DNA from: a virus | Length of the DNA: 38,826 nt | Strand: one strand, 5' to 3' | IMG/VR virus record: IMGVR_UViG_3300029541_000013 | Location: 1 to 38,826 of that record | Position numbers and translations under genes: made by a program | Notes under the pieces: model-generated | The model's input: the letters and a program-made list of their open reading frames with translations, nothing else | Told to the model about the DNA's origin: nothing | Database searches by the model: none | In this document: positions 3,628 through 29,031 of the stretch, piece after piece | How the letters are laid out: the number at the start of each line of letters is the position of its first letter | Numbering within the stretch: the stretch's first letter is position 1

Positions 3628-3930
3628 ATGGATAACGCAAAACACTACGATGACGCGGCGATCGCGCTGATTGAATCGAGGTGCAAGAGCAACACGCACC
3701 GAATCAACGAACTGACGGAACATCAGGTGGCGCTTGACCGGCTGGGAACCTCGGTCGAGGTACTGGCCACGAAGCAGGAGACCGTGGAGGGCGACGTCAA
3801 GGAGATCAAGGAGGATGTGAAAACCATCACGGGCAAGGCGGGCAAGCGGTGGGACGGGCTGGTCGACAAGGCCCTCGCCGTGCTTGCGGGGGCGTTCCTC
3901 GCGTGGCTGCTGTCGGGTGTAGCCTTATGA
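3628..3930 (+). CDS. xhlA: XhlA-type lysis-associated membrane protein
   Basis: RBS AAGGGAG. Coiled-coil N-terminal part plus a C-terminal TM helix (ALAVLAGAFLAWLLSGV), the typical XhlA architecture, at the head of the lysis cassette. Confidence 0.8.
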   Translation: MDNAKHYDDAAIALIESRCKSNTHRINELTEHQVALDRLGTSVEVLATKQETVEGDVKEIKEDVKTITGKAGKRWDGLVDKALAVLAGAFLAWLLSGVAL

Positions 3931-7907: not shown

Positions 7908-7949
7908 AGGCATACTTTACCTTTGCGAACGTGAAAGTAAAATATGCCT
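7908..7949. other. Candidate attP core: 20-bp imperfect inverted repeat around central AA dinucleotide
   Basis: AGGCATACTTTACCTTTGCG (7908-7927), AA (7928-7929), CGTGAAAGTAAAATATGCCT (7930-7949). 16 of 20 positions are complementary. The site abuts the integrase stop codon, and no T-run follows on either strand. Confidence 0.45.
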
Positions 7950-9246
7950 AACGCGGCGTTACAAAAAACGCGCCATCGTTGTCTGCATCAATCCTCCTGA
8001 TGAAGCGCGTCCAGAATTCCTTTTTTTCTTCCCGCGAGTATGTATCATATTCGCCCAGCCCGTTTCTCAAAGCATCAAGGTCTGTCTTTGGCTTTTCTTC
8101 CACGGTCTCAAGGGACTTTTTCAGGCTCGCGTATTCTGCCTTGTAATCGTCCAGCTCGATCAAATCATTTAGATACAGCGTTTTTAGCTTGCTCATTTTC
8201 TTTCGTATCGCGTCCGCGCTTTGCGTGGGCTTTTTTTCTGCCTTTTTGTAATACCTGTTGTTCCGCTCTGTGATTCCTGCAAGCTCGTGCAACAGGTAGT
8301 CTTCCAGCGCGTCTTCCCTGATCCTCTTCATGTGCGGGCAAGCGGAGTTGTCAAGCATCCGCGTCCGGCAACGGTAATATGTATATATCTGTTTTGCGGT
8401 TTCCGACTGCATTGTTCTTCCGCATTCCTTGCAATGCAAAAGCCCCGAGAACAGATACACGCGATCCACATCAACTCCGGCACAGCGCTGTGACCGCTGG
8501 CGGGAAATATCATTTACAAGGTCAAAGTCTTGCTTGCTCACCAACGAAGGGCAAGCGTTTTCGATGCCGTACACCTCGCCAATGTAAAGCCGGTTGTGGA
8601 AATAGTTGACATACTTATTATATGCTCGGTCAATTCCCCATGTGTCGAGCATATATCGTTTTACAGCAAGGACGCTTTTCAGACGAATATATGCGGCAAA
8701 CATATCCCGCGCCGCGTCTGCCGTGTCGTTATCAATTTGGTATTGCCTGTCTTTAATGATATACCCTAAAGGCGCTTTTGAGCCTGCCGGTTGCCCTTTT
8801 GCACGCTTGCCGTCGTTGATAAATTTTATTCGCTCGCTCGTGCGGTCGGCTTCGTCCTGCGCGACGGAAAGCATGATGTTAACCTTTAATCGCCCTGATG
8901 CGGTGCGCGTCTCGTAGTCCTCTTCCGTCGCTTGCCACGTTACGCCGTACCGGTCGAGCTGCGTCTGCACATCGTAATACCCAGCAACATTTCGGAACCA
9001 ACGGTCGAGTTTAATAAACAGGATCGTGTCTACTTTCCCCGCCTTGCAATCGTCCAGCAGCCGCAGGAGCGCCGGGCGTTTTTTATACGGCTTTCTCGCG
9101 GATATGCCTGCATCCTCATATATGCCCACCACGGTCATTTTATTCGCTTTGGCATATCTTGCCAGCGCGTCCCGCTGCTCTTGTAATGATAGACCATGCC
9201 GCGCTTGTTCCTCGCTGGACACGCGTATATACAATGCCGCTCTCAT
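7948..9246 (-). CDS. int: Large serine recombinase (integrase)
   Basis: ATG 9246 after GGAGGGGG. Resolvase-type N-terminus with AALYIRVSSEEQ, a recombinase domain, and a zinc ribbon CKECG...YYRCR...CPH followed by a coiled coil. Confidence 0.92.
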   Translation of the reverse strand: MRAALYIRVSSEEQARHGLSLQEQRDALARYAKANKMTVVGIYEDAGISARKPYKKRPALLRLLDDCKAGKVDTILFIKLDRWFRNVAGYYDVQTQLDRYGVTWQATEEDYETRTASGRLKVNIMLSVAQDEADRTSERIKFINDGKRAKGQPAGSKAPLGYIIKDRQYQIDNDTADAARDMFAAYIRLKSVLAVKRYMLDTWGIDRAYNKYVNYFHNRLYIGEVYGIENACPSLVSKQDFDLVNDISRQRSQRCAGVDVDRVYLFSGLLHCKECGRTMQSETAKQIYTYYRCRTRMLDNSACPHMKRIREDALEDYLLHELAGITERNNRYYKKAEKKPTQSADAIRKKMSKLKTLYLNDLIELDDYKAEYASLKKSLETVEEKPKTDLDALRNGLGEYDTYSREEKKEFWTRFIRRIDADNDGAFFVTPR

Positions 9247-9266
9247 CAAATCCCCCTCCAATCAAT

Positions 9267-20448: not shown

Positions 20449-20658
20449 ATGGACGCTAAGTGCCTGAACCGTAGCGCAGTTGTATATAAGCAAATTGTGA
20501 TTCACGGGGGAGAGCAAAACGATAGTAGTCTTATTTTGGCAGCAAAAACATATCGAAAACAAGGTGCTGTAAGATATGTAAACCTCGATAGCGAATACAT
20601 AGTTGCAGAAATCGAAGGAGCAAAAGAGGTTTTTCGAGCAGAGAGGATGCGCATATGA
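20449..20658 (+). CDS. Hypothetical small protein
   Basis: 69 aa, with its start 5 nt after the G9 run. Its stop overlaps the start of the following HTH gene. Confidence 0.6.
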   Translation: MDAKCLNRSAVVYKQIVIHGGEQNDSSLILAAKTYRKQGAVRYVNLDSEYIVAEIEGAKEVFRAERMRI

Positions 20659-20873
20659 GCACGTTTCCTGACCGGCTGCGGAGATTGCGCGAGCGCCACC
20701 AACTAAAGCGCTGCGTGCTATCTGAGCTGTGCGGGCTGAACCGCAACACGATCAAGCGGTATGAGATGGGGACACAGAAACCGTCAATGGACGCGCTGAT
20801 AAGCATTGCTGATTATTTCGGCGTGTCGATTGATTATCTGCTCGGTCGATCGGACTACCCGAAAAGTTTATAA
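20655..20873 (+). CDS. XRE-family HTH protein
   Basis: LKRCVLSELCGLNRNTIKRYEMGTQKPSMDALISIADYFGVSIDYLLGRSD is a classical HTH_3 pattern. Confidence 0.85.
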   Translation: MSTFPDRLRRLRERHQLKRCVLSELCGLNRNTIKRYEMGTQKPSMDALISIADYFGVSIDYLLGRSDYPKSL

Positions 20874-20887
20874 AACTTTTTTGCAAA

Positions 20888-20905
20888 ACTCACTTATAAG
20901 TGAGT
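20888..20905. promoter_or_regulatory. 18-bp perfect palindrome
   Basis: ACTCACTTA/TAAGTGAGT, lying 15 nt after the HTH gene stop. Confidence 0.5.
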
Positions 20906-20931
20906 CGGGGGATTGTAATTATGGGAGAATT

Positions 20932-20963
20932 GAACCGCAGAGGTGTAAAAGCCTTTGCGGTTC
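20932..20963 (+). terminator. Strong 12-bp hairpin (possible end of the early operon)
   Basis: GAACCGCAGAGG (20932-20943) pairs with CCTTTGCGGTTC (20952-20963) with one G-T pair and an 8-nt loop. It is followed by a T-rich stretch, TCTCATTTAT. Confidence 0.45.
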
Positions 20964-21144
20964 TCTCATTTATGGCGTTTACCTCCTGCGCCATAGCGGG
21001 GCGCGGTGCTTTTCATCTTTTCACACCGACCCCGCAATATGCCGCACGCACGATGCAGCCCACGATCAGGGCCGAGAGGTCGCACCTCTCATGCGGCACA
21101 GGACCCCGCGCACCTCTCAACGATGTGGCCCAGCGGGGACATAC

Positions 21145-21222
21145 GCAGACGTAGCTCAGGTGGTAGAGCACCGGACTTCGTGAGCCGGTATGTCGTGGGT
21201 CCGAGTCCCACCGTCTGCGCCA
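21145..21222 (+). tRNA. tRNA-like gene with encoded CCA, non-canonical anticodon arm and T-loop; anticodon unassigned (TCG/Arg if read canonically)
   Basis: Acceptor stem GCAGACG/CGTCTGC. D arm GCTC-AGGTGGTA-GAGC. T arm GTGGG-TCCGAGT-CCCAC. Discriminator G plus CCA. The anticodon arm has only 4 clean pairs (CCGG/CCGG) and an 8-nt loop CTTCGTGA. Total length is 78 nt, 2 nt longer than the standard layout. Confidence 0.6.
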
Positions 21223-21660
21223 GTGGTCGGGTAGCTCCCGGACAATGTGAGACCGTTGTCGTCATGGCTCACATGGAAATGACAATGCTCGCTGAAAACT
21301 GCGCCAGAGTTCCGCAACCGGGGCCGATACGCGGCGTGTGACAATCTAAGCGAGAAAGACGACCATATATGCGGCGTGCAGAAGCAGAAGCGAAAGCAAT
21401 GGCTATAGGCAACATTGCGGACGTGTGGCGGCTCAATACCGTCTCGCCGCTCCAAAAGAGGAGAGCCGCTGCCTTTGGCAATGGGCAAAGCGCCCGCCTG
21501 AAAGTGCGGCAAGTGTAGCCCATACGGGCGGGGAAAGACTGCTATGTAAGGCCAAGGGGTGGGGGCTGGTAGCAAAAATAATTTGACAACGCTTATCGGC
21601 GTATCAAAGCGGCAATAGACTGTGACGGGCGGATGAAATTAGACCGCAGCACGACAGCGA

Positions 21661-21710
21661 GCCGCAATTCGCGGCAACCTGCGGCAGATCGCGGCGAGTT
21701 GCGAACGAAG
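21661..21710 (+). repeat. Five 10-bp phased repeats (GCGGCA-type) upstream of terS
   Basis: GCCGCAATTC GCGGCAACCT GCGGCAGATC GCGGCGAGTT GCGAACGAAG, exactly one repeat per 10 bp. Confidence 0.7.
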
Positions 21711-21724
21711 AAAAGAGAAGAAAA

Positions 21725-21760
21725 TCCCCCCTTTCTTCCCCCTCTCTTCTTTTTCCCCTT
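21725..21760 (+). repeat. 36-nt perfect homopyrimidine tract flanked by homopurine tracts
   Basis: TCCCCCCTTTCTTCCCCCTCTCTTCTTTTTCCCCTT. Purine runs lie at 21707-21724 and 21796-21816. The 11-bp pairing 21743-21753 with 21796-21806 is possible. Confidence 0.8.
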
Positions 21761-21831
21761 AAACCCCTTTATTATCTCTCCCCCTATAATCCCCCAAAAG
21801 AAGAGAAAAGAAAAAATAAAAAAGAGAGGTG

Positions 21832-21850
21832 GGGCGCGTCCCACGCGCCC
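21832..21850. other. GC hairpin just upstream of terS
   Basis: GGGCGCG-TCCCA-CGCGCCC. There is no T-run on the + strand. Confidence 0.5.
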
Positions 21851-21888
21851 TTGGAGAGAAAAAACTACGACAAAAGAGGTGGTGACGA

Positions 21889-22260
21889 GTGCCATTAACA
21901 GCAAAACAAGAGAGGTTTGTACAAGAATATCTTGTGGACTTAAATGCCACTCAAGCCGCCGCGAGAGCCGGTTATAAGAACGCTGAGAAAGGTAGGCAGT
22001 TAGTTACGAATGGTAACGTTTCAGCTGCTATCCAGAAAGCAAAGGCAGAAAGACAGAAACGGACGGAAGTAACGCAGGACTATGTTATAGAAAAACTCAA
22101 AGAAATAGCAGACAAGCCTGCGTCTGATTGCACGGAAAGCGATTTGAAATATGCGAATAAACTAAAGGCCCTTGAGATGCTTGCAAAGCATACAGGCGTG
22201 TTTGATAAGCAAGATAATTCCAGCACCGATTCCGTCGTTAAGGTGATTATCGATGTCTGA
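21889..22260 (+). CDS. terS: Terminase small subunit
   Basis: GTG start after AAGAGGTGG. LTAKQERFVQEYLVDLNATQAAARAGYKNAEKGRQL fits the Terminase_2 pattern. Confidence 0.9.
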   Translation: MPLTAKQERFVQEYLVDLNATQAAARAGYKNAEKGRQLVTNGNVSAAIQKAKAERQKRTEVTQDYVIEKLKEIADKPASDCTESDLKYANKLKALEMLAKHTGVFDKQDNSSTDSVVKVIIDV

Positions 22261-23491
22261 TATTTTCCTGTCCGAGAAAATCGGCCCTGCGTTTTATGAC
22301 ATTGCGCATGACATTTTCCATCATGGTCACACGCACTATGATTTTAGCGGCGGGCGCGGCTCGCTGAAATCTTCCACGGTATCAATTATCGTGCCGCTTC
22401 TGCTGGTCGCCAATCCGGGAACACACGCGCTGGTGCTGCGCAAGGTAGCAAACACGATCCGCGATAGCGTCTATGCCCAGTATATCTGGGCAATCGGTGA
22501 ACTGGGTATGGCGGCGTATTGGGAAGCGAAGGTTTCCCCGATGGAGCTGATCTACAAGCCTACCGGCCAAAAAATCATGTTTCGCGGTGCCGATGACCCC
22601 ATGAAAATCAAATCCATCAAAGTGCCGTTTGGGTACATCGCCGTTACACACTTTGAGGAAAAAGACCAGTTTGCCGGACGGGCGGAAATCCGAAACATTT
22701 TGCAGTCCACCATGCGCGGCGGCTCGGTTTTCTGGAACTTTGAGAGCTACAACCCGCCAATCAGCCGCGACAACTGGGCAAACAAGGACAGCTTGGAGGA
22801 ACGCGCTGACCGGCTGTGCCACAAGTCAACATATCTGCAAGCCCCGCCTGAATGGTTGGGCCAGCAGTTTTTAGACGAGGCCGAACATCTGAAAGCTACG
22901 GACGAGCGGGCATACCAGCATGAATATCTGGGTGTGCCTGTTGGCACCGGCGGCAATGTGTTTGAAAACTTGGAGTTGCGGGAGATCACCGACGAGGAAA
23001 TCAGCCACTTCGACAGGATTTATCAGGGCGTGGACTACGGCTGGTTCCCTGACCCGTTTGCATTTATCCGCGTGCATTACGACAAGACGCGGGAAACGAT
23101 CTACCTGATAGACGAAATATATCAAAACAAGCTTTCCAACGAGCAGAGCGCGGGCATGATTAAGGCAAAAGGCTACACCGACGCTTATATCATCTGCGAC
23201 AGCGCGGAGCCTAAAAGCGTTGCGGACTTCCGCGCGATGGGACTACCCGCCAAAGCTGCCGTAAAAGGTCCTGACAGCGTGGCGTACGGAATGAAGTGGC
23301 TACAGCGGAGGAAGATTGTTATTGACCGCAGGCGCACACCACACGCCTATGACGAGTTTGTAAACTATGAGTACGACCGCGACAAAGATGGAGACTTTAT
23401 CAGCGGCTACCCAGACGAGAAAAACCATTTGATAGACGCACTGCGCTATGCAGTTGAGCCGATTAGCCGCAGAATGGGAGTTATCGCATGA
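22253..23491 (+). CDS. terL: Terminase large subunit (PBSX-type)
   Basis: Walker A-like GGRGSLKSS, an ATPase domain and a nuclease domain. The gene overlaps terS and the portal gene. Confidence 0.92.
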   Translation: MSDIFLSEKIGPAFYDIAHDIFHHGHTHYDFSGGRGSLKSSTVSIIVPLLLVANPGTHALVLRKVANTIRDSVYAQYIWAIGELGMAAYWEAKVSPMELIYKPTGQKIMFRGADDPMKIKSIKVPFGYIAVTHFEEKDQFAGRAEIRNILQSTMRGGSVFWNFESYNPPISRDNWANKDSLEERADRLCHKSTYLQAPPEWLGQQFLDEAEHLKATDERAYQHEYLGVPVGTGGNVFENLELREITDEEISHFDRIYQGVDYGWFPDPFAFIRVHYDKTRETIYLIDEIYQNKLSNEQSAGMIKAKGYTDAYIICDSAEPKSVADFRAMGLPAKAAVKGPDSVAYGMKWLQRRKIVIDRRRTPHAYDEFVNYEYDRDKDGDFISGYPDEKNHLIDALRYAVEPISRRMGVIA

Positions 23492-24918
23492 GCAATGAAG
23501 TCATCCTAAAACTAAATGAACTTGGCTATTCCACTATCCCCGAAGAGTTTTACGGTAAGGTGGCGGAATGGAAAAGCTGGTATCAGGGGGACGTGAAAGG
23601 TTTCCACAGTTACCGCGTCCGCAACGGCGAGAGCATGGTTAACTGCAAGCGGTACTCTCTCGGCATGGGGAAGAAGCTGTGCGAGGATTGGGCGAATCTG
23701 TTGATGAACGAGAAAGTCCAGATCACCCTTGAGGGGCAGAAGGAACAGGAATTTATCGACCGTGTTTTGACCGAGAACAATTTCACGGTCAAGGCAAACG
23801 AGATGCAGGAAATGAAATCCGCTCTTGGCACGGTGGCCTATATCCCCCGCGTTATCGGTCAGGAGATCAACGAGGGCGGCGAGATCGTCCCCGGAAATGC
23901 TTCCGGTATCATTCTGGACTATGTGACCATTGAGAACATTTACCCGCTGGCATGGCAGAACGGCCTTATCAGCGAATGCGCGTTTTCTTCTGTGGTTACG
24001 CGCAACGGGCACGATTATTTGTATCTCCAAATCCACCACAAGGACGATAGCGGCAGCTATATCATCGACAATCGCATTTACCGCTATGATAACGAAATGC
24101 TGTCCGACGAGCAGCTTGCCAATGTCAAAGGCTTTGAGAATATCCCGTCTATGGTATATACCGGCAACGACAAGCGGCAGTTTGTCATTGACCGGCTGAA
24201 CATCGCCAACAATTTCAACTATCTCCTGCCGACTGGTATTGCAGTGTATGCGAACGCTATCGATGTGTTGAAGGGCGTGGATATCGCCTATGACAGTTAT
24301 GTGAACGAGTTCCGGCTTGGCAAGAAACGGATCATGGTCAAGCCATCTGCGGCGAAGTACCTTGACGGTGAGCCAGTATTCGACCCGTCCGACGTGGCGT
24401 TTTATGTGCTGCCGGAGGATGTGAGCGACGGCGCGGTCATTACCCCCATTGATATGACTTTACGGACGGCGGAGCACAACACGGGTATTCAAGACCAACT
24501 CAATATTCTATCCAGCAAGTGCGGATTTGGTGAGACCTACTATCGTTTTGACGGCGGCAGCGTGGCAACGGCTACGCAGGTCATCAGTGAGAACAGCACC
24601 ATGTTCCGAACAATCAAGAAGCATGAAATCATTCTTGAAGATGCGCTTGTGGAGCTTTGCCGCATTCTTCTCCGCCTTGGCAACACCGCGATGAACGCTG
24701 GGCTGAATGAGGATGTTGAGATCAGCATTGACTTTGACGATAGTATCATCGAGAGCCGTGAACAGAACGAAGCCCGCATTTATCAAATGCTTAGTGCTGG
24801 ACTAATGAAAGCGGAAGAAGCCCGCTCCATTCTGATGAACGAGGACATTGAAACGGCACGGGCAAATCTTCCGGGGATGGACGACCTCACCACCGAGGAA
24901 CAAGATGAAGTAGAATAA
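23488..24918 (+). CDS. Portal protein (SPP1 gp6-like)
   Basis: 476 aa directly after terL. The N-terminal IPEEFYGKVAEWKSWYQG...RYSLGMGKKLCEDWANLLMNEKV is typical of this portal family. Confidence 0.9.
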   Translation: MSNEVILKLNELGYSTIPEEFYGKVAEWKSWYQGDVKGFHSYRVRNGESMVNCKRYSLGMGKKLCEDWANLLMNEKVQITLEGQKEQEFIDRVLTENNFTVKANEMQEMKSALGTVAYIPRVIGQEINEGGEIVPGNASGIILDYVTIENIYPLAWQNGLISECAFSSVVTRNGHDYLYLQIHHKDDSGSYIIDNRIYRYDNEMLSDEQLANVKGFENIPSMVYTGNDKRQFVIDRLNIANNFNYLLPTGIAVYANAIDVLKGVDIAYDSYVNEFRLGKKRIMVKPSAAKYLDGEPVFDPSDVAFYVLPEDVSDGAVITPIDMTLRTAEHNTGIQDQLNILSSKCGFGETYYRFDGGSVATATQVISENSTMFRTIKKHEIILEDALVELCRILLRLGNTAMNAGLNEDVEISIDFDDSIIESREQNEARIYQMLSAGLMKAEEARSILMNEDIETARANLPGMDDLTTEEQDEVE

Positions 24919-28349: not shown

Positions 28350-28464
28350 CGGTAAAAGCCGCAACTGCGGATTTTATACAAATTTGGCTATCTGCAAGCC
28401 TAAAAGTGCAGGCGGGACGGTCACGGCAACGACCTAAAAAGCCTATCCCGTAAGGAGATGCAAC

Positions 28465-29031
28465 ATGAAGAAAGAGGATTTGCTGAACATCGGCCTGACG
28501 GAAGAGCAGGCGGACAAGGTTTTTGCCATGAATGGCAAGGACATTGAGAAGCACAAGAAAGCCGCAGAGGACGCGAAAGCGGACAAGGAATCACTTGAAC
28601 AGCAGGTGGCCGACCGCGATAAGGACATTGCCGAGCTGCAAAAGTCCAGCGGCGACGCTGACAGCGTGCGCAAACAGCTCGAAGAGTTGCAGGGCAAGTA
28701 CGACAAAGAAACCGAAGCGTATAAAGCCCAGCTTGCACAGCGCGATTATCAGTCCGCTATCGACAAGGCAATCTCTGACAGCGGCATTAAGTTCAGTTCC
28801 AAGTCTGCGGAAAAAGCATTCCGCGCTGGTATCGGTGACAGCAAGCTCGAAATGAAGGACGGCGCTTTGAGTGGGTTTGATAAGTACCTCGAAAAAGCAA
28901 AGTCCGATGACCCCAGCGCATTTGTCAAAGCCGGTGCGCGTGTTGACACGCAAGGCTCGCTTGAAGGCGGGCAGCGTGAAAACAAGCCTATGACTTTGGC
29001 GGCTGCGCTCCACGAACAATACGATAAGTAA
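28465..29031 (+). CDS. Scaffolding protein (phage GP20-like)
   Basis: RBS AAGGAG. A highly charged coiled-coil protein immediately upstream of the capsid gene. LNIGLTEEQADKVFAMNGKDIEKHK is typical of the family. Confidence 0.85.
   Translation: MKKEDLLNIGLTEEQADKVFAMNGKDIEKHKKAAEDAKADKESLEQQVADRDKDIAELQKSSGDADSVRKQLEELQGKYDKETEAYKAQLAQRDYQSAIDKAISDSGIKFSSKSAEKAFRAGIGDSKLEMKDGALSGFDKYLEKAKSDDPSAFVKAGARVDTQGSLEGGQRENKPMTLAAALHEQYDK

Follow-up and report, generated by a model that had tools for sequence, protein, structure and literature searches.

The window analyzed here is the whole of a 38,826-nucleotide (nt) viral DNA (IMG/VR record IMGVR_UViG_3300029541_000013, positions 1 to 38,826), and our subject is a gene-free region of about 1 kb within it, at positions 20874-21888. 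This region is flanked by the gene of an XRE-type helix-turn-helix (HTH) regulator (20655-20873, 72 amino acids) and by terS (21889-22260, + strand; Terminase_2), the first late gene, which is followed by terL (22253-23491, + strand; Terminase_3) and the portal gene (23488-24918). The presence of a large serine recombinase gene (7948-9261, − strand) identifies the roughly 39-kb window as a temperate siphophage-type genome. The phage is a member of a family of temperate gut siphophages, and the transfer RNA (tRNA) found in the region lies at the early/late junction of a temperate Bacillota phage. An initial annotation had described the region as a candidate large structured RNA, built from consecutive strong hairpins around a tRNA-like element.

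A modular, non-coding locus upstream of terS

The region is non-coding and modular, is laid out on one strand, and contains at least three conserved RNA structures as well as conserved junctions. When it was compared by BLAST with about 280 related gut-phage loci (160 retrieved from IMG/VR through their TerS and HTH proteins, about 120 through a DNA pattern), it broke at fixed points into about 12 modules, each independently present, absent or replaced. More than 80 architectures were found, in which the order and strand of the modules are constant while every module is dispensable somewhere. The order is HTH gene – leader – (m61 – B2) – slot – (D) – (E) – (iv84) – (G) – core – (Ins) – first late gene, and the window carries the maximal set. 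The distance between the HTH gene and the start of terS varies from 581 to 1234 nt among relatives, and cassettes turn over even where the phages are otherwise more than 90% identical. Every tRNA or tRNA-like unit is on the gene strand, module boundaries fall at tRNA ends, and each hairpin module ends in AAUAU, ACAUAC or CCAUAU directly 5' of a tRNA-shaped unit. Among cultured phages, a single relative was found, Flavonifractor phage Castelnaud (ON453903). It was induced as a prophage from F. plautii YL31 (PMC10197239) and has the layout regulator, gap, (HNH), terS, terL in common with the window. A scan of genomes for a host using the leader returned as its sole match a 42.7-kb contig in a 'Bacteroidales' metagenome-assembled genome, which may be a mis-binned phage contig and is thus uninformative about the host.

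The view of the initial annotation that 20874-21888 has no credible open reading frames (ORFs) is borne out: none has support from Pfam or PHROG, and their frames are broken in relatives. The best-looking ORF, 20900-21154 (84 amino acids), has a lipoprotein-like start at ATG 20922 that, read by eye, resembles a signal peptide and is preceded 8 nt upstream by GGGGGA; its relatives carry 1-2 nt indels and in-frame stops (ATG AGA TAA). A 49-amino-acid ORF at 21369-21518, which overlaps the iv84 RNA described below, is not conserved either, having ATG changed to ACG or stops in relatives. The same lack of frame conservation and of Pfam or PHROG matches led us to reject 21593-21904 (− strand), 21633-21977 and the minus-strand ORF 21156-21575, whose product had already been called implausible. 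Frame-breaking indels among 22 variants of the module at 21578-21858 show that it, too, is non-coding. PHANOTATE places three small coding sequences (CDSs) in the homologous region of Castelnaud, but ORFs of this kind extend across modules that assort independently, and it is extremely improbable that the region encodes small proteins such as the 84- or 49-residue products. In Castelnaud (L164, positions 2111-2611), the three CDSs, annotated as hypothetical proteins, overlie homologues of a leader-like hairpin, m61, DE and iv84; they are probably artefacts of gene calling in sequence that specifies non-coding RNAs.

The initial annotation had compared the region with the giant ornate RNAs GOLLD and ROOL. 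These are likewise non-coding and reside in prophages of Bacillota beside tRNAs, and large phage non-coding RNAs lie beside tRNAs, perhaps owing to co-transcription (PMC5737381). The context is indeed as described, with a tRNA at 21145-21222, terS, terL and the portal gene downstream, and a serine recombinase in the same genome, but context alone does not establish membership. The 12 helices that had been paired by hand are all exactly complementary, and Watson-Crick helices of at least 7 base pairs (bp) spanning no more than 70 nt number 14 in the region, whereas the window's remaining 36 blocks of 1 kb average 4.1 ± 2.0 and do not exceed 8. They are unevenly spread: their density falls from 22 per kb in 20873-21140 to only 4.5 per kb in 21140-21580 and rises to 16 per kb in the purine/pyrimidine part at 21580-21888. 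Folding energy, scored in 120-nt windows against dinucleotide shuffles, is exceptional only at 20861-21100 (z −4.5 to −6.9, against a window background of −0.5 ± 1.3) and ordinary across 21100-21880 (z between +0.9 and −2.9). The description of about 1 kb of consecutive strong hairpins thus stands for the overall excess of helices but not for its spread over the whole kilobase.

A search with all 4227 Rfam covariance models over both strands of 20700-22000 at E ≤ 10 returned the tRNA as its only meaningful match. GOLLD and ROOL did not match at any score, nor did another large-RNA model at E ≤ 10, and the remaining E ≤ 10 matches were sub-threshold chance, mostly microRNA models on the purine/pyrimidine tract. 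At gathering thresholds, the whole window contains only the tRNA and GP20-b, and transfer-messenger RNA was detected neither by ARAGORN or the gathering scan of the window nor by the E ≤ 10 scan of 20700-22000. Testing the helices for covariation in the collected homologues supported the tRNA scaffold, iv84 and DE, whereas helices between modules are not kept. Among the hand-paired helices, 21288-21293/21349-21354 is an inherited unit that closes the covariation-supported DE motif; the module-bridging helices 21428-21434/21463-21469 and 21493-21498/21527-21532 are not, and the former competes with a covariation-supported stem. Because the parts are each dispensable, they cannot build one large RNA. 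The proposal that the whole region is a single ornate RNA of the GOLLD or ROOL type, or of a comparably large new class, with the tRNA as an internal part, is therefore rejected and would seem very improbable even in light of the numerous perfect helices: the modules are gained, lost and swapped independently, most of the region folds at background energy, and one conserved multi-domain architecture is replaced here by separable units of about 60-120 nt.

tRNA-shaped RNAs and an internal-loop motif

The unit that we call iv84 (21371-21454, + strand) is an 84-nt, tRNA-shaped RNA with AUAU at its 5' flank and UCCA at its 3' end. It consists of an acceptor-like stem (21371-21376/21445-21450), a 3-bp D-like hairpin, a long arm (21396-21401/21413-21418) with an 11-nt loop, and a T-like arm (21427-21431/21439-21443) with a 7-nt loop. 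According to a pattern scan, at least 119 IMG/VR viral contigs contain it, and the collected loci yield 139 copies with 55 unique sequences and sharp boundaries at AUAU|G and CCA| and unrelated sequence on both sides; the AUAU|G junction is invariant and NCCA nearly so. The element is conserved in phages whose terS genes are only 68% identical and in Castelnaud, where it is annotated as a 50-amino-acid hypothetical CDS. In its three main stems, 99.2% of alignment cells are paired, compared with 33-63% in slid controls, and five pairs have changed on both sides, as in GCGGCG/CGCCGC to GCCGAG/CUCGGC and GCAAUG/CAUUGC to GCGGCG/CGCCGC. RNAalifold folded the alignment as a cloverleaf, adding the D-like hairpin and lengthening the long arm.

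A covariance model of iv84 scores 113.8 bits on the window copy, and its next + strand matches, the tRNA-like unit T78 and m61 (see below), reach about 11 bits without significance; m61, the third-best match, scores 10.7 bits (E 0.44). ARAGORN makes no tRNA call on iv84, and neither the Rfam tRNA model nor any other family matches it at E ≤ 10. Its resemblance to tRNA goes no further than the cloverleaf topology, an AUAU junction on the 5' side and a terminal NCCA; its T-like loop, CUCAAUA with a variable fifth position, is not a canonical T loop. Thus, iv84 is a new tRNA-shaped RNA, supported by covariation and absent from Rfam.

Directly 5' of iv84 in many divergent phages lies a second conserved structure, the DE motif (21288-21354, + strand), although each of the two is also found without the other. 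Its helices P1 (21288-21293/21349-21354) and P2 (21301-21305/21333-21337) are separated by two almost invariant joining strands, J1/2 (GAAAACU, 21294-21300) and J2/1 (GUGACAAUCUA, 21338-21348). The distal cap is hypervariable: it measures 27 nt in the window, and P2 plus cap range from 12 to 82 nt in relatives, with hairpins that are unrelated from lineage to lineage. We collected 124 copies in 45 unique variants, Castelnaud included. In a trimmed alignment, 88.7% of cells are paired versus 28-54% in slid controls, and 5 of the 11 pairs have changed on both sides. P2 is always complementary while its sequences differ (CGCC/GGCG, CGCU/AGCG, CCCU/AGGG, CCGG/CUGG, CGUCUGU/ACAGGCG, CCGU/ACGG), its first pair being G·U, A·C, A-U or G-C, and P1 co-varies at three positions. 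There is no Rfam match to DE at E ≤ 10 in the window or at E ≤ 1 in the relatives, and inspection of the loop by eye, short of a formal test, revealed no signature of a k-turn, hammerhead, loop E or 11-nt receptor. DE is hence a new internal-loop RNA motif supported by base-pair covariation.

The cloverleaf noted by the initial annotation at 21145-21222 (+ strand; T78 hereafter) is called tRNA-Thr(CGU) by ARAGORN and matches the Rfam tRNA model (RF00005) with 50 bits against a gathering threshold of 29, having a 7-bp acceptor stem, canonical acceptor, D and T stems, and an encoded CCA. Its 18-nt anticodon arm, CCGG-ACUUCGUGAG-CCGG, departs from that of a canonical decoder (7-nt loop, U33, purine 37, Watson-Crick 31-39): the loop has 8 nt and is closed by A·G, and in the Infernal alignment an extra base follows position 32 and A31·G39 is marked as non-canonical. 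Position 37 is G, where A37 is expected of tRNAs that read ANN codons. The T loop, UCCGAGU with C55 in every copy, departs from the canonical U54-U55-C56-R57-A58, so that T78 breaks the rules for a decoder in four ways (8-nt loop, A·G closing pair, G37, C55). The odd arm is identical in 23 copies comprising five sequence variants, and the acceptor stem shows a compensatory change (A5-U68 to G5-C68). We considered whether T78 could be a recent mutant of a canonical tRNA and rejected this, since a version of its scaffold with a 7-nt loop was found neither in IMG/VR, where the search met only unrelated Phe and Lys tRNAs, nor in 241 million metagenome records (0 matches).

In relatives, ARAGORN and a structural scan showed the slot between B2 and D to be filled by normal-looking tRNA-Gln(UUG) or tRNA-Trp(CCA) or by tRNA-like units that share a scaffold; in others, the Rfam scan placed skipping-rope RNA there. 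The scaffold consists of the acceptor GCAGACG/CGUCUGC, a D arm, a T arm and an encoded NCCA, and it occurs in at least eight types whose 'anticodon' domains are non-homologous. These middle domains, comprising the anticodon arm and variable region, measure 19, 22-23, 25, 29, 33 or 40 nt; further variants have total lengths of 79, 81 and 115 nt. Members besides T78 make no better decoders; in one type, position 33 is A and position 34 varies freely. In the 26 unique sequences of the scaffold family, pairing is complete in the acceptor and T stems and is broken by a single mismatch in the D stem. Compensatory changes affect positions 3, 5 and 7 of the acceptor stem, 2 and 3 of the T stem, and 1 of the D stem.

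Two scaffold types deserve separate description. A 72-nt type (L020 3231-3302, L044 3015-3086) has no anticodon stem and carries a conserved, Shine-Dalgarno-like GGAGG(U), which is complementary over 8-9 nt to the loop sequence ACCUCCUG of leader hairpin H2 (window 20981-20988). In 93-nt variants (L012 2890-2982, L039 2984-3076), an inserted stem co-varies between the two versions (AAUGG/CCAUU in one, AAGGG/CCCUU in the other) and is interleaved with another stem, AUCGC/GCGAU, an arrangement that hints at a pseudoknot where the anticodon arm would be.

Skipping-rope RNA (RF02924) fills the slot in 5 of the 17 relatives scanned, with 47-51 bits against a gathering threshold of 36.7; matches at the slot lie at L086 1603-1697, L156 4568-4662, L137 2958-3052, L104 4569-4663, L134 4570-4664 and L186 3667-3761. 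It has been described as an RNA whose function is likely sophisticated but unknown (PMC5737381). Like T78, it is a structured small RNA between B2 and the D spacer; unlike in those relatives, the slot of the window holds T78. The gathering scan of the window and the E ≤ 10 scan of 20700-22000 gave no match to skipping-rope RNA, and neither DE nor iv84 fits its model.

Upstream of the slot lies m61 (21040-21100, + strand), a mini-cloverleaf that is also the minimum free energy (MFE) fold. It combines a 7-bp acceptor-like stem (21040-21046/21092-21098) with stems of 3 bp, 4 bp (bearing a 7-nt loop) and 7 bp (21074-21080/21084-21090), the last of which shows compensatory changes in L209 and Castelnaud (GAGAGG/CCUCUC to GGAGGG/CCCUCC). 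The CCA end is missing in the window and in most copies, while 61-nt copies ending in ACCA occur in L193, L129 and L047; in L050, m61 stands alone. The spacer hairpin B2 (21101-21144, + strand; stem 21104-21109/21133-21138) partially duplicates the 3' portion of m61, with the direct repeat CGCACCTCTCA at 21081 and 21109. It is conserved along with m61 and ends in ACAUAC directly 5' of the tRNA, and it is at this ACAUAY end that differing downstream cassettes are joined.

The remaining spacers are less distinctive. D5' (21223-21287, + strand), with hairpins at 21228-21240 and 21245-21251/21268-21274, follows Thr-, Gln- or Trp-type units depending on the locus, and the folding energy of 21223-21306 is unexceptional (z −1.07). 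Spacer G (21455-21517, + strand) occurs in some relatives only and folds with ordinary energy (z −0.12).

Palindrome, leader and core

A perfect 18-bp palindrome, ACTCACTTATAAGTGAGT (20888-20905), begins 15 nt past the stop codon of the HTH gene. It is unique in the window and invariant in all loci with this HTH allele, and a possible extended −10 element, TGTAATTAT, was recognized by eye 3' of it at 20915-20923. It is a candidate operator of the XRE-type regulator, or alternatively a hairpin. In L042 (3520-3600 and ~3640-3740), a relative with a different HTH allele, a variant palindrome, CCACTTAAAAGTGG, occupies the same place and is overlapped by promoter-like sites. The same locus has a canonical strong terminator at the position equivalent to leader hairpin 1, and in it another CCA-ending, tRNA-shaped cassette of about 97 nt (GCGGCAU...AUGCCGU-A-CCA) replaces iv84.

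The conserved leader (20919-21039, + strand) folds into three hairpins: H1 (20921-20969; core 20932-20963, followed by UCUCAUUUAU), H2 (20971-20995; loop UUUACCUCCUG) and H3 (20996-21035; a 15-nt U-rich loop). Its MFE is −57.6 kcal/mol (z −7.05; none of 200 shuffles was as stable), and the minus strand is also stable (z −5.07). It is found after two unrelated upstream contexts. In the leader alignment, 99.5% of 1854 cells are paired, and 21 of the 35 pairs vary on one side yet stay paired, mostly via G-U. About one-sixth of all cells are G-U, which on the minus strand are A·C mismatches; since the substitutions keep pairing only on the + strand, an RNA of that strand is favored. H1 passes a simple terminator scan weakly, with a weak tail (UCUCAUUUAU), and such sites are as numerous as in shuffles. 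We note that GGGGGATTGTA at the start of the leader (20907-20917) is complementary at 10 of 11 positions to TATAATCCCCC (21785-21795), 867 nt away in the optional leader module; this is probably chance, because the left arm is not conserved in relatives. Given the terminator, promoter-like sites and variant palindrome of L042, the palindrome and leader may be read as a control point between early and late transcription.

At the other edge of the locus, the core (21518-21577, + strand; about 60 nt) comprises a GCCC-NNNN-GGGC hairpin, followed by a G-rich tract with GGUAGCAAAA at its end. In 183 loci, which among them have 100 unique flanks, it hardly varies, whichever module precedes it, and in most relatives its hairpin is cUUCGg. 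As a structured RNA, it was discarded as a candidate, being thermodynamically ordinary (z +0.29). Nor is it a terS-specific pac site: it precedes Terminase_2 and GP3_package terS genes, a DNA methylase, an HNH endonuclease or unknown genes, and it shows no co-variation with the terS family. Its occurrence before such unrelated first genes argues for a signal at the start of the late block, and the core may act as a promoter, leader or antitermination signal. The initial annotation had offered a late-control region as a fallback, a role that the palindrome, the leader and this 60-nt element before terS may have.

In a subset of loci, the core is followed by an optional leader module (21578-21858, + strand; about 280 nt), whereas in most relatives it is joined directly to the ribosome-binding site of terS. 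The module has a conserved 5' block (TTGACA...), GCGGCA repeats every ~10-11 nt, successive purine, pyrimidine and purine tracts, an invariant TATAAT (21785-21790), inverted repeats I6-I10 and a GC hairpin at 21831-21850; the z-scores of its folding energy are −2.4 to −2.9. Such features raise the question of whether the conserved pieces of the region act mainly as DNA, namely as an operator and late promoter, as pac or TerS repeats, or as a replication or packaging signal, with the hairpins being incidental palindromes. The palindrome adjoining the HTH gene with its allele-specific variant, the near-invariance of a core that is not thermodynamically structured, the repeats about 10-11 bp apart with TATAAT, and the stability of the leader hairpins on both strands would all fit. 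Against this stand the variety of genes behind the core, the absence of the repeat-bearing module from most relatives, the strand preference of the leader substitutions, and the RNA-type covariation of iv84, DE and the tRNA scaffold. We consider an explanation in terms of DNA signals quite unlikely.

Two further observations were made in passing. A GP20-b RNA (RF03003), a known cis-regulatory candidate motif, lies at 28386-28445 (+ strand; 57.3 bits against a gathering threshold of 36.2), directly upstream of an ORF at 28465-29031 in the head-gene region. In addition, 8 of 80 IMG/VR contigs (L013, L038, L069, L070, L072, L075, L077 and L078) terminate within 300 nt upstream of terS, where about 1 would be expected; this clustering could stem from assemblies broken at a mosaic region, from proviruses trimmed at tRNAs, or from genuine genome ends, and we judge it uninterpretable.

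Origin and possible roles of the array

Taken together, the region is best read as a hypervariable, rightward-transcribed cargo locus of small non-coding RNAs, accessory to the phage, matured by tRNA enzymes and placed at the junction between early and packaging genes; we give this reading a probability of about 60%. The array would be transcribed rightward with the late genes or just ahead of them. Its tRNA-shaped units, bounded by AUAU|G at the 5' end and NCCA at the 3' end, would then be excised by host RNase P and 3' trimming, which would also free the interspersed hairpin RNAs and set the 5' end of the terS mRNA. T78 and its scaffold relatives appear to keep the parts recognized by processing enzymes, by the CCA-adding enzyme and by some synthetases. 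As they keep these parts and have lost a normal decoding loop, they are most likely mimics, decoys or specialized tRNAs rather than ordinary decoders, and the released RNAs may serve as accessory factors in conflict between phage and host.

Such a role in mimicry, as decoys or in counter-defence is suggested by analogy. An altered anticodon loop can allow a phage tRNA to escape defences that target tRNAs, as described for anticodon-loop variants (PMC10264068), for a T5 tRNA versus PARIS (PMC11464382) and for tRNAs versus retron effectors (PMC11555353). The RNAs of the present locus resemble them in having an abnormal anticodon loop, in being accessory, in their fast turnover and in an identity that differs among close relatives. 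The published examples, however, are functional decoders with point changes, whereas here the loops are expanded, shrunken or replaced by domains of 19-40 nt, one of them carrying GGAGG. A more far-reaching idea, which we put forward tentatively and think rather unlikely, is that the array represents a new class of phage tRNA mimics, in which a CCA-bearing scaffold with interchangeable non-decoding middles (the 8-nt loop, the GGAGG-bearing stub, the pseudoknot-like inserts), together with iv84 and DE, would act as decoys, sponges or inhibitors.

Several points weigh against the cargo-locus reading. The search for a sigma-70 promoter for the array gave one weak minus-strand match, which does not exceed shuffle expectation. 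The leader alignment contains no double compensatory changes, and the double changes in iv84 separate few clades, so its covariation represents few independent events. Given its non-canonical loop, three-dimensional tRNA mimicry by iv84 is only putative. Sites in the phage complementary to the loops of iv84, T78, m61 and the leader are confined to chance matches with two mismatches, and the idea that these RNAs act as guides was rejected on that ground. Finally, m61 mostly lacks CCA and pieces resembling tRNA fragments occur in the region, CTGCGCCA at 21299-21306 and 20986-20993 among them, so that the array may in part be recombination debris.

In its full form, the latter explanation holds that captured tRNA genes recombine at their conserved ends and leave functionless pseudo-tRNAs, with only the flanking control signals being of consequence. 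Fast cassette turnover is expected equally of conflict loci and of a recombination hotspot that accumulates debris, and the scattered tRNA 3'-end fragments, the coincidence of tRNA ends with module boundaries, the dispensability of each cassette in some relative, the aberrant anticodon loops and the loss of CCA from most m61 copies are all in keeping with it. Debris would not, however, be expected to show compensatory changes that keep the stems while the loops drift, nor an odd T78 arm that is identical in 23 copies above a co-varying acceptor stem, nor sharply bounded elements such as iv84 and DE that persist across the lineages with divergent terS and in Castelnaud. We therefore regard an array made mostly of debris as unlikely and retain the cargo locus as the preferred reading.

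Searching the literature for phage RNAs with such tRNA-like features gave no specific precedent, and the nearest parallels are partial ones. The tRNA region of phage T4 also encodes stable RNAs of unknown function; such clusters, like the present array, lie on one strand, vary between relatives and are presumably matured by host enzymes. They differ in that the array consists mostly of non-decoders, with a shared scaffold carrying non-homologous middles, mini-cloverleafs and a D-arm-reduced 84-nt RNA, and in that it lies directly upstream of terS in a temperate phage. A eukaryotic tRNA-like processing signal, mascRNA, is found at the 3' end of MALAT1. By analogy, RNase P could set the ends of neighboring RNAs wherever a tRNA-shaped element follows a structured one, a likeness based on the hairpin modules that end in AUAU or AUAC directly before a tRNA-shaped unit; mascRNA is eukaryotic, and for the array such processing is conjectural. 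The locus is a phage tRNA-associated cluster of non-coding RNAs, unusual for its non-decoding tRNA-shaped RNAs and for two motifs that are absent from Rfam.

The locus yields iv84 and DE, both without an Rfam family, and a family of tRNA-shaped RNAs with a replaced decoding domain. It also links the orphan skipping-rope motif to exchangeable tRNA-like cassettes, giving the two a common context in which function can be tested. The inducible prophage Castelnaud of F. plautii YL31, with its m61-like, DE and iv84 units annotated as hypothetical proteins, offers a cultured system. The case also serves as a warning that gene callers turn RNAs of this type into hypothetical proteins, while tRNA finders assign meaningless anticodons to the scaffold family. 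Accessory ('moron') loci of phages are usually studied as protein genes; here, the cargo consists entirely of small structured RNAs of variable presence and absence. If these RNAs do form a class of tRNA mimics, their targets would be host enzymes that recognize tRNA, such as anticodon and acceptor-end nucleases, CCA-modifying toxins, and translation or processing factors, and the cassette swaps between near-identical phages would record an arms race conducted by RNA rather than by protein.

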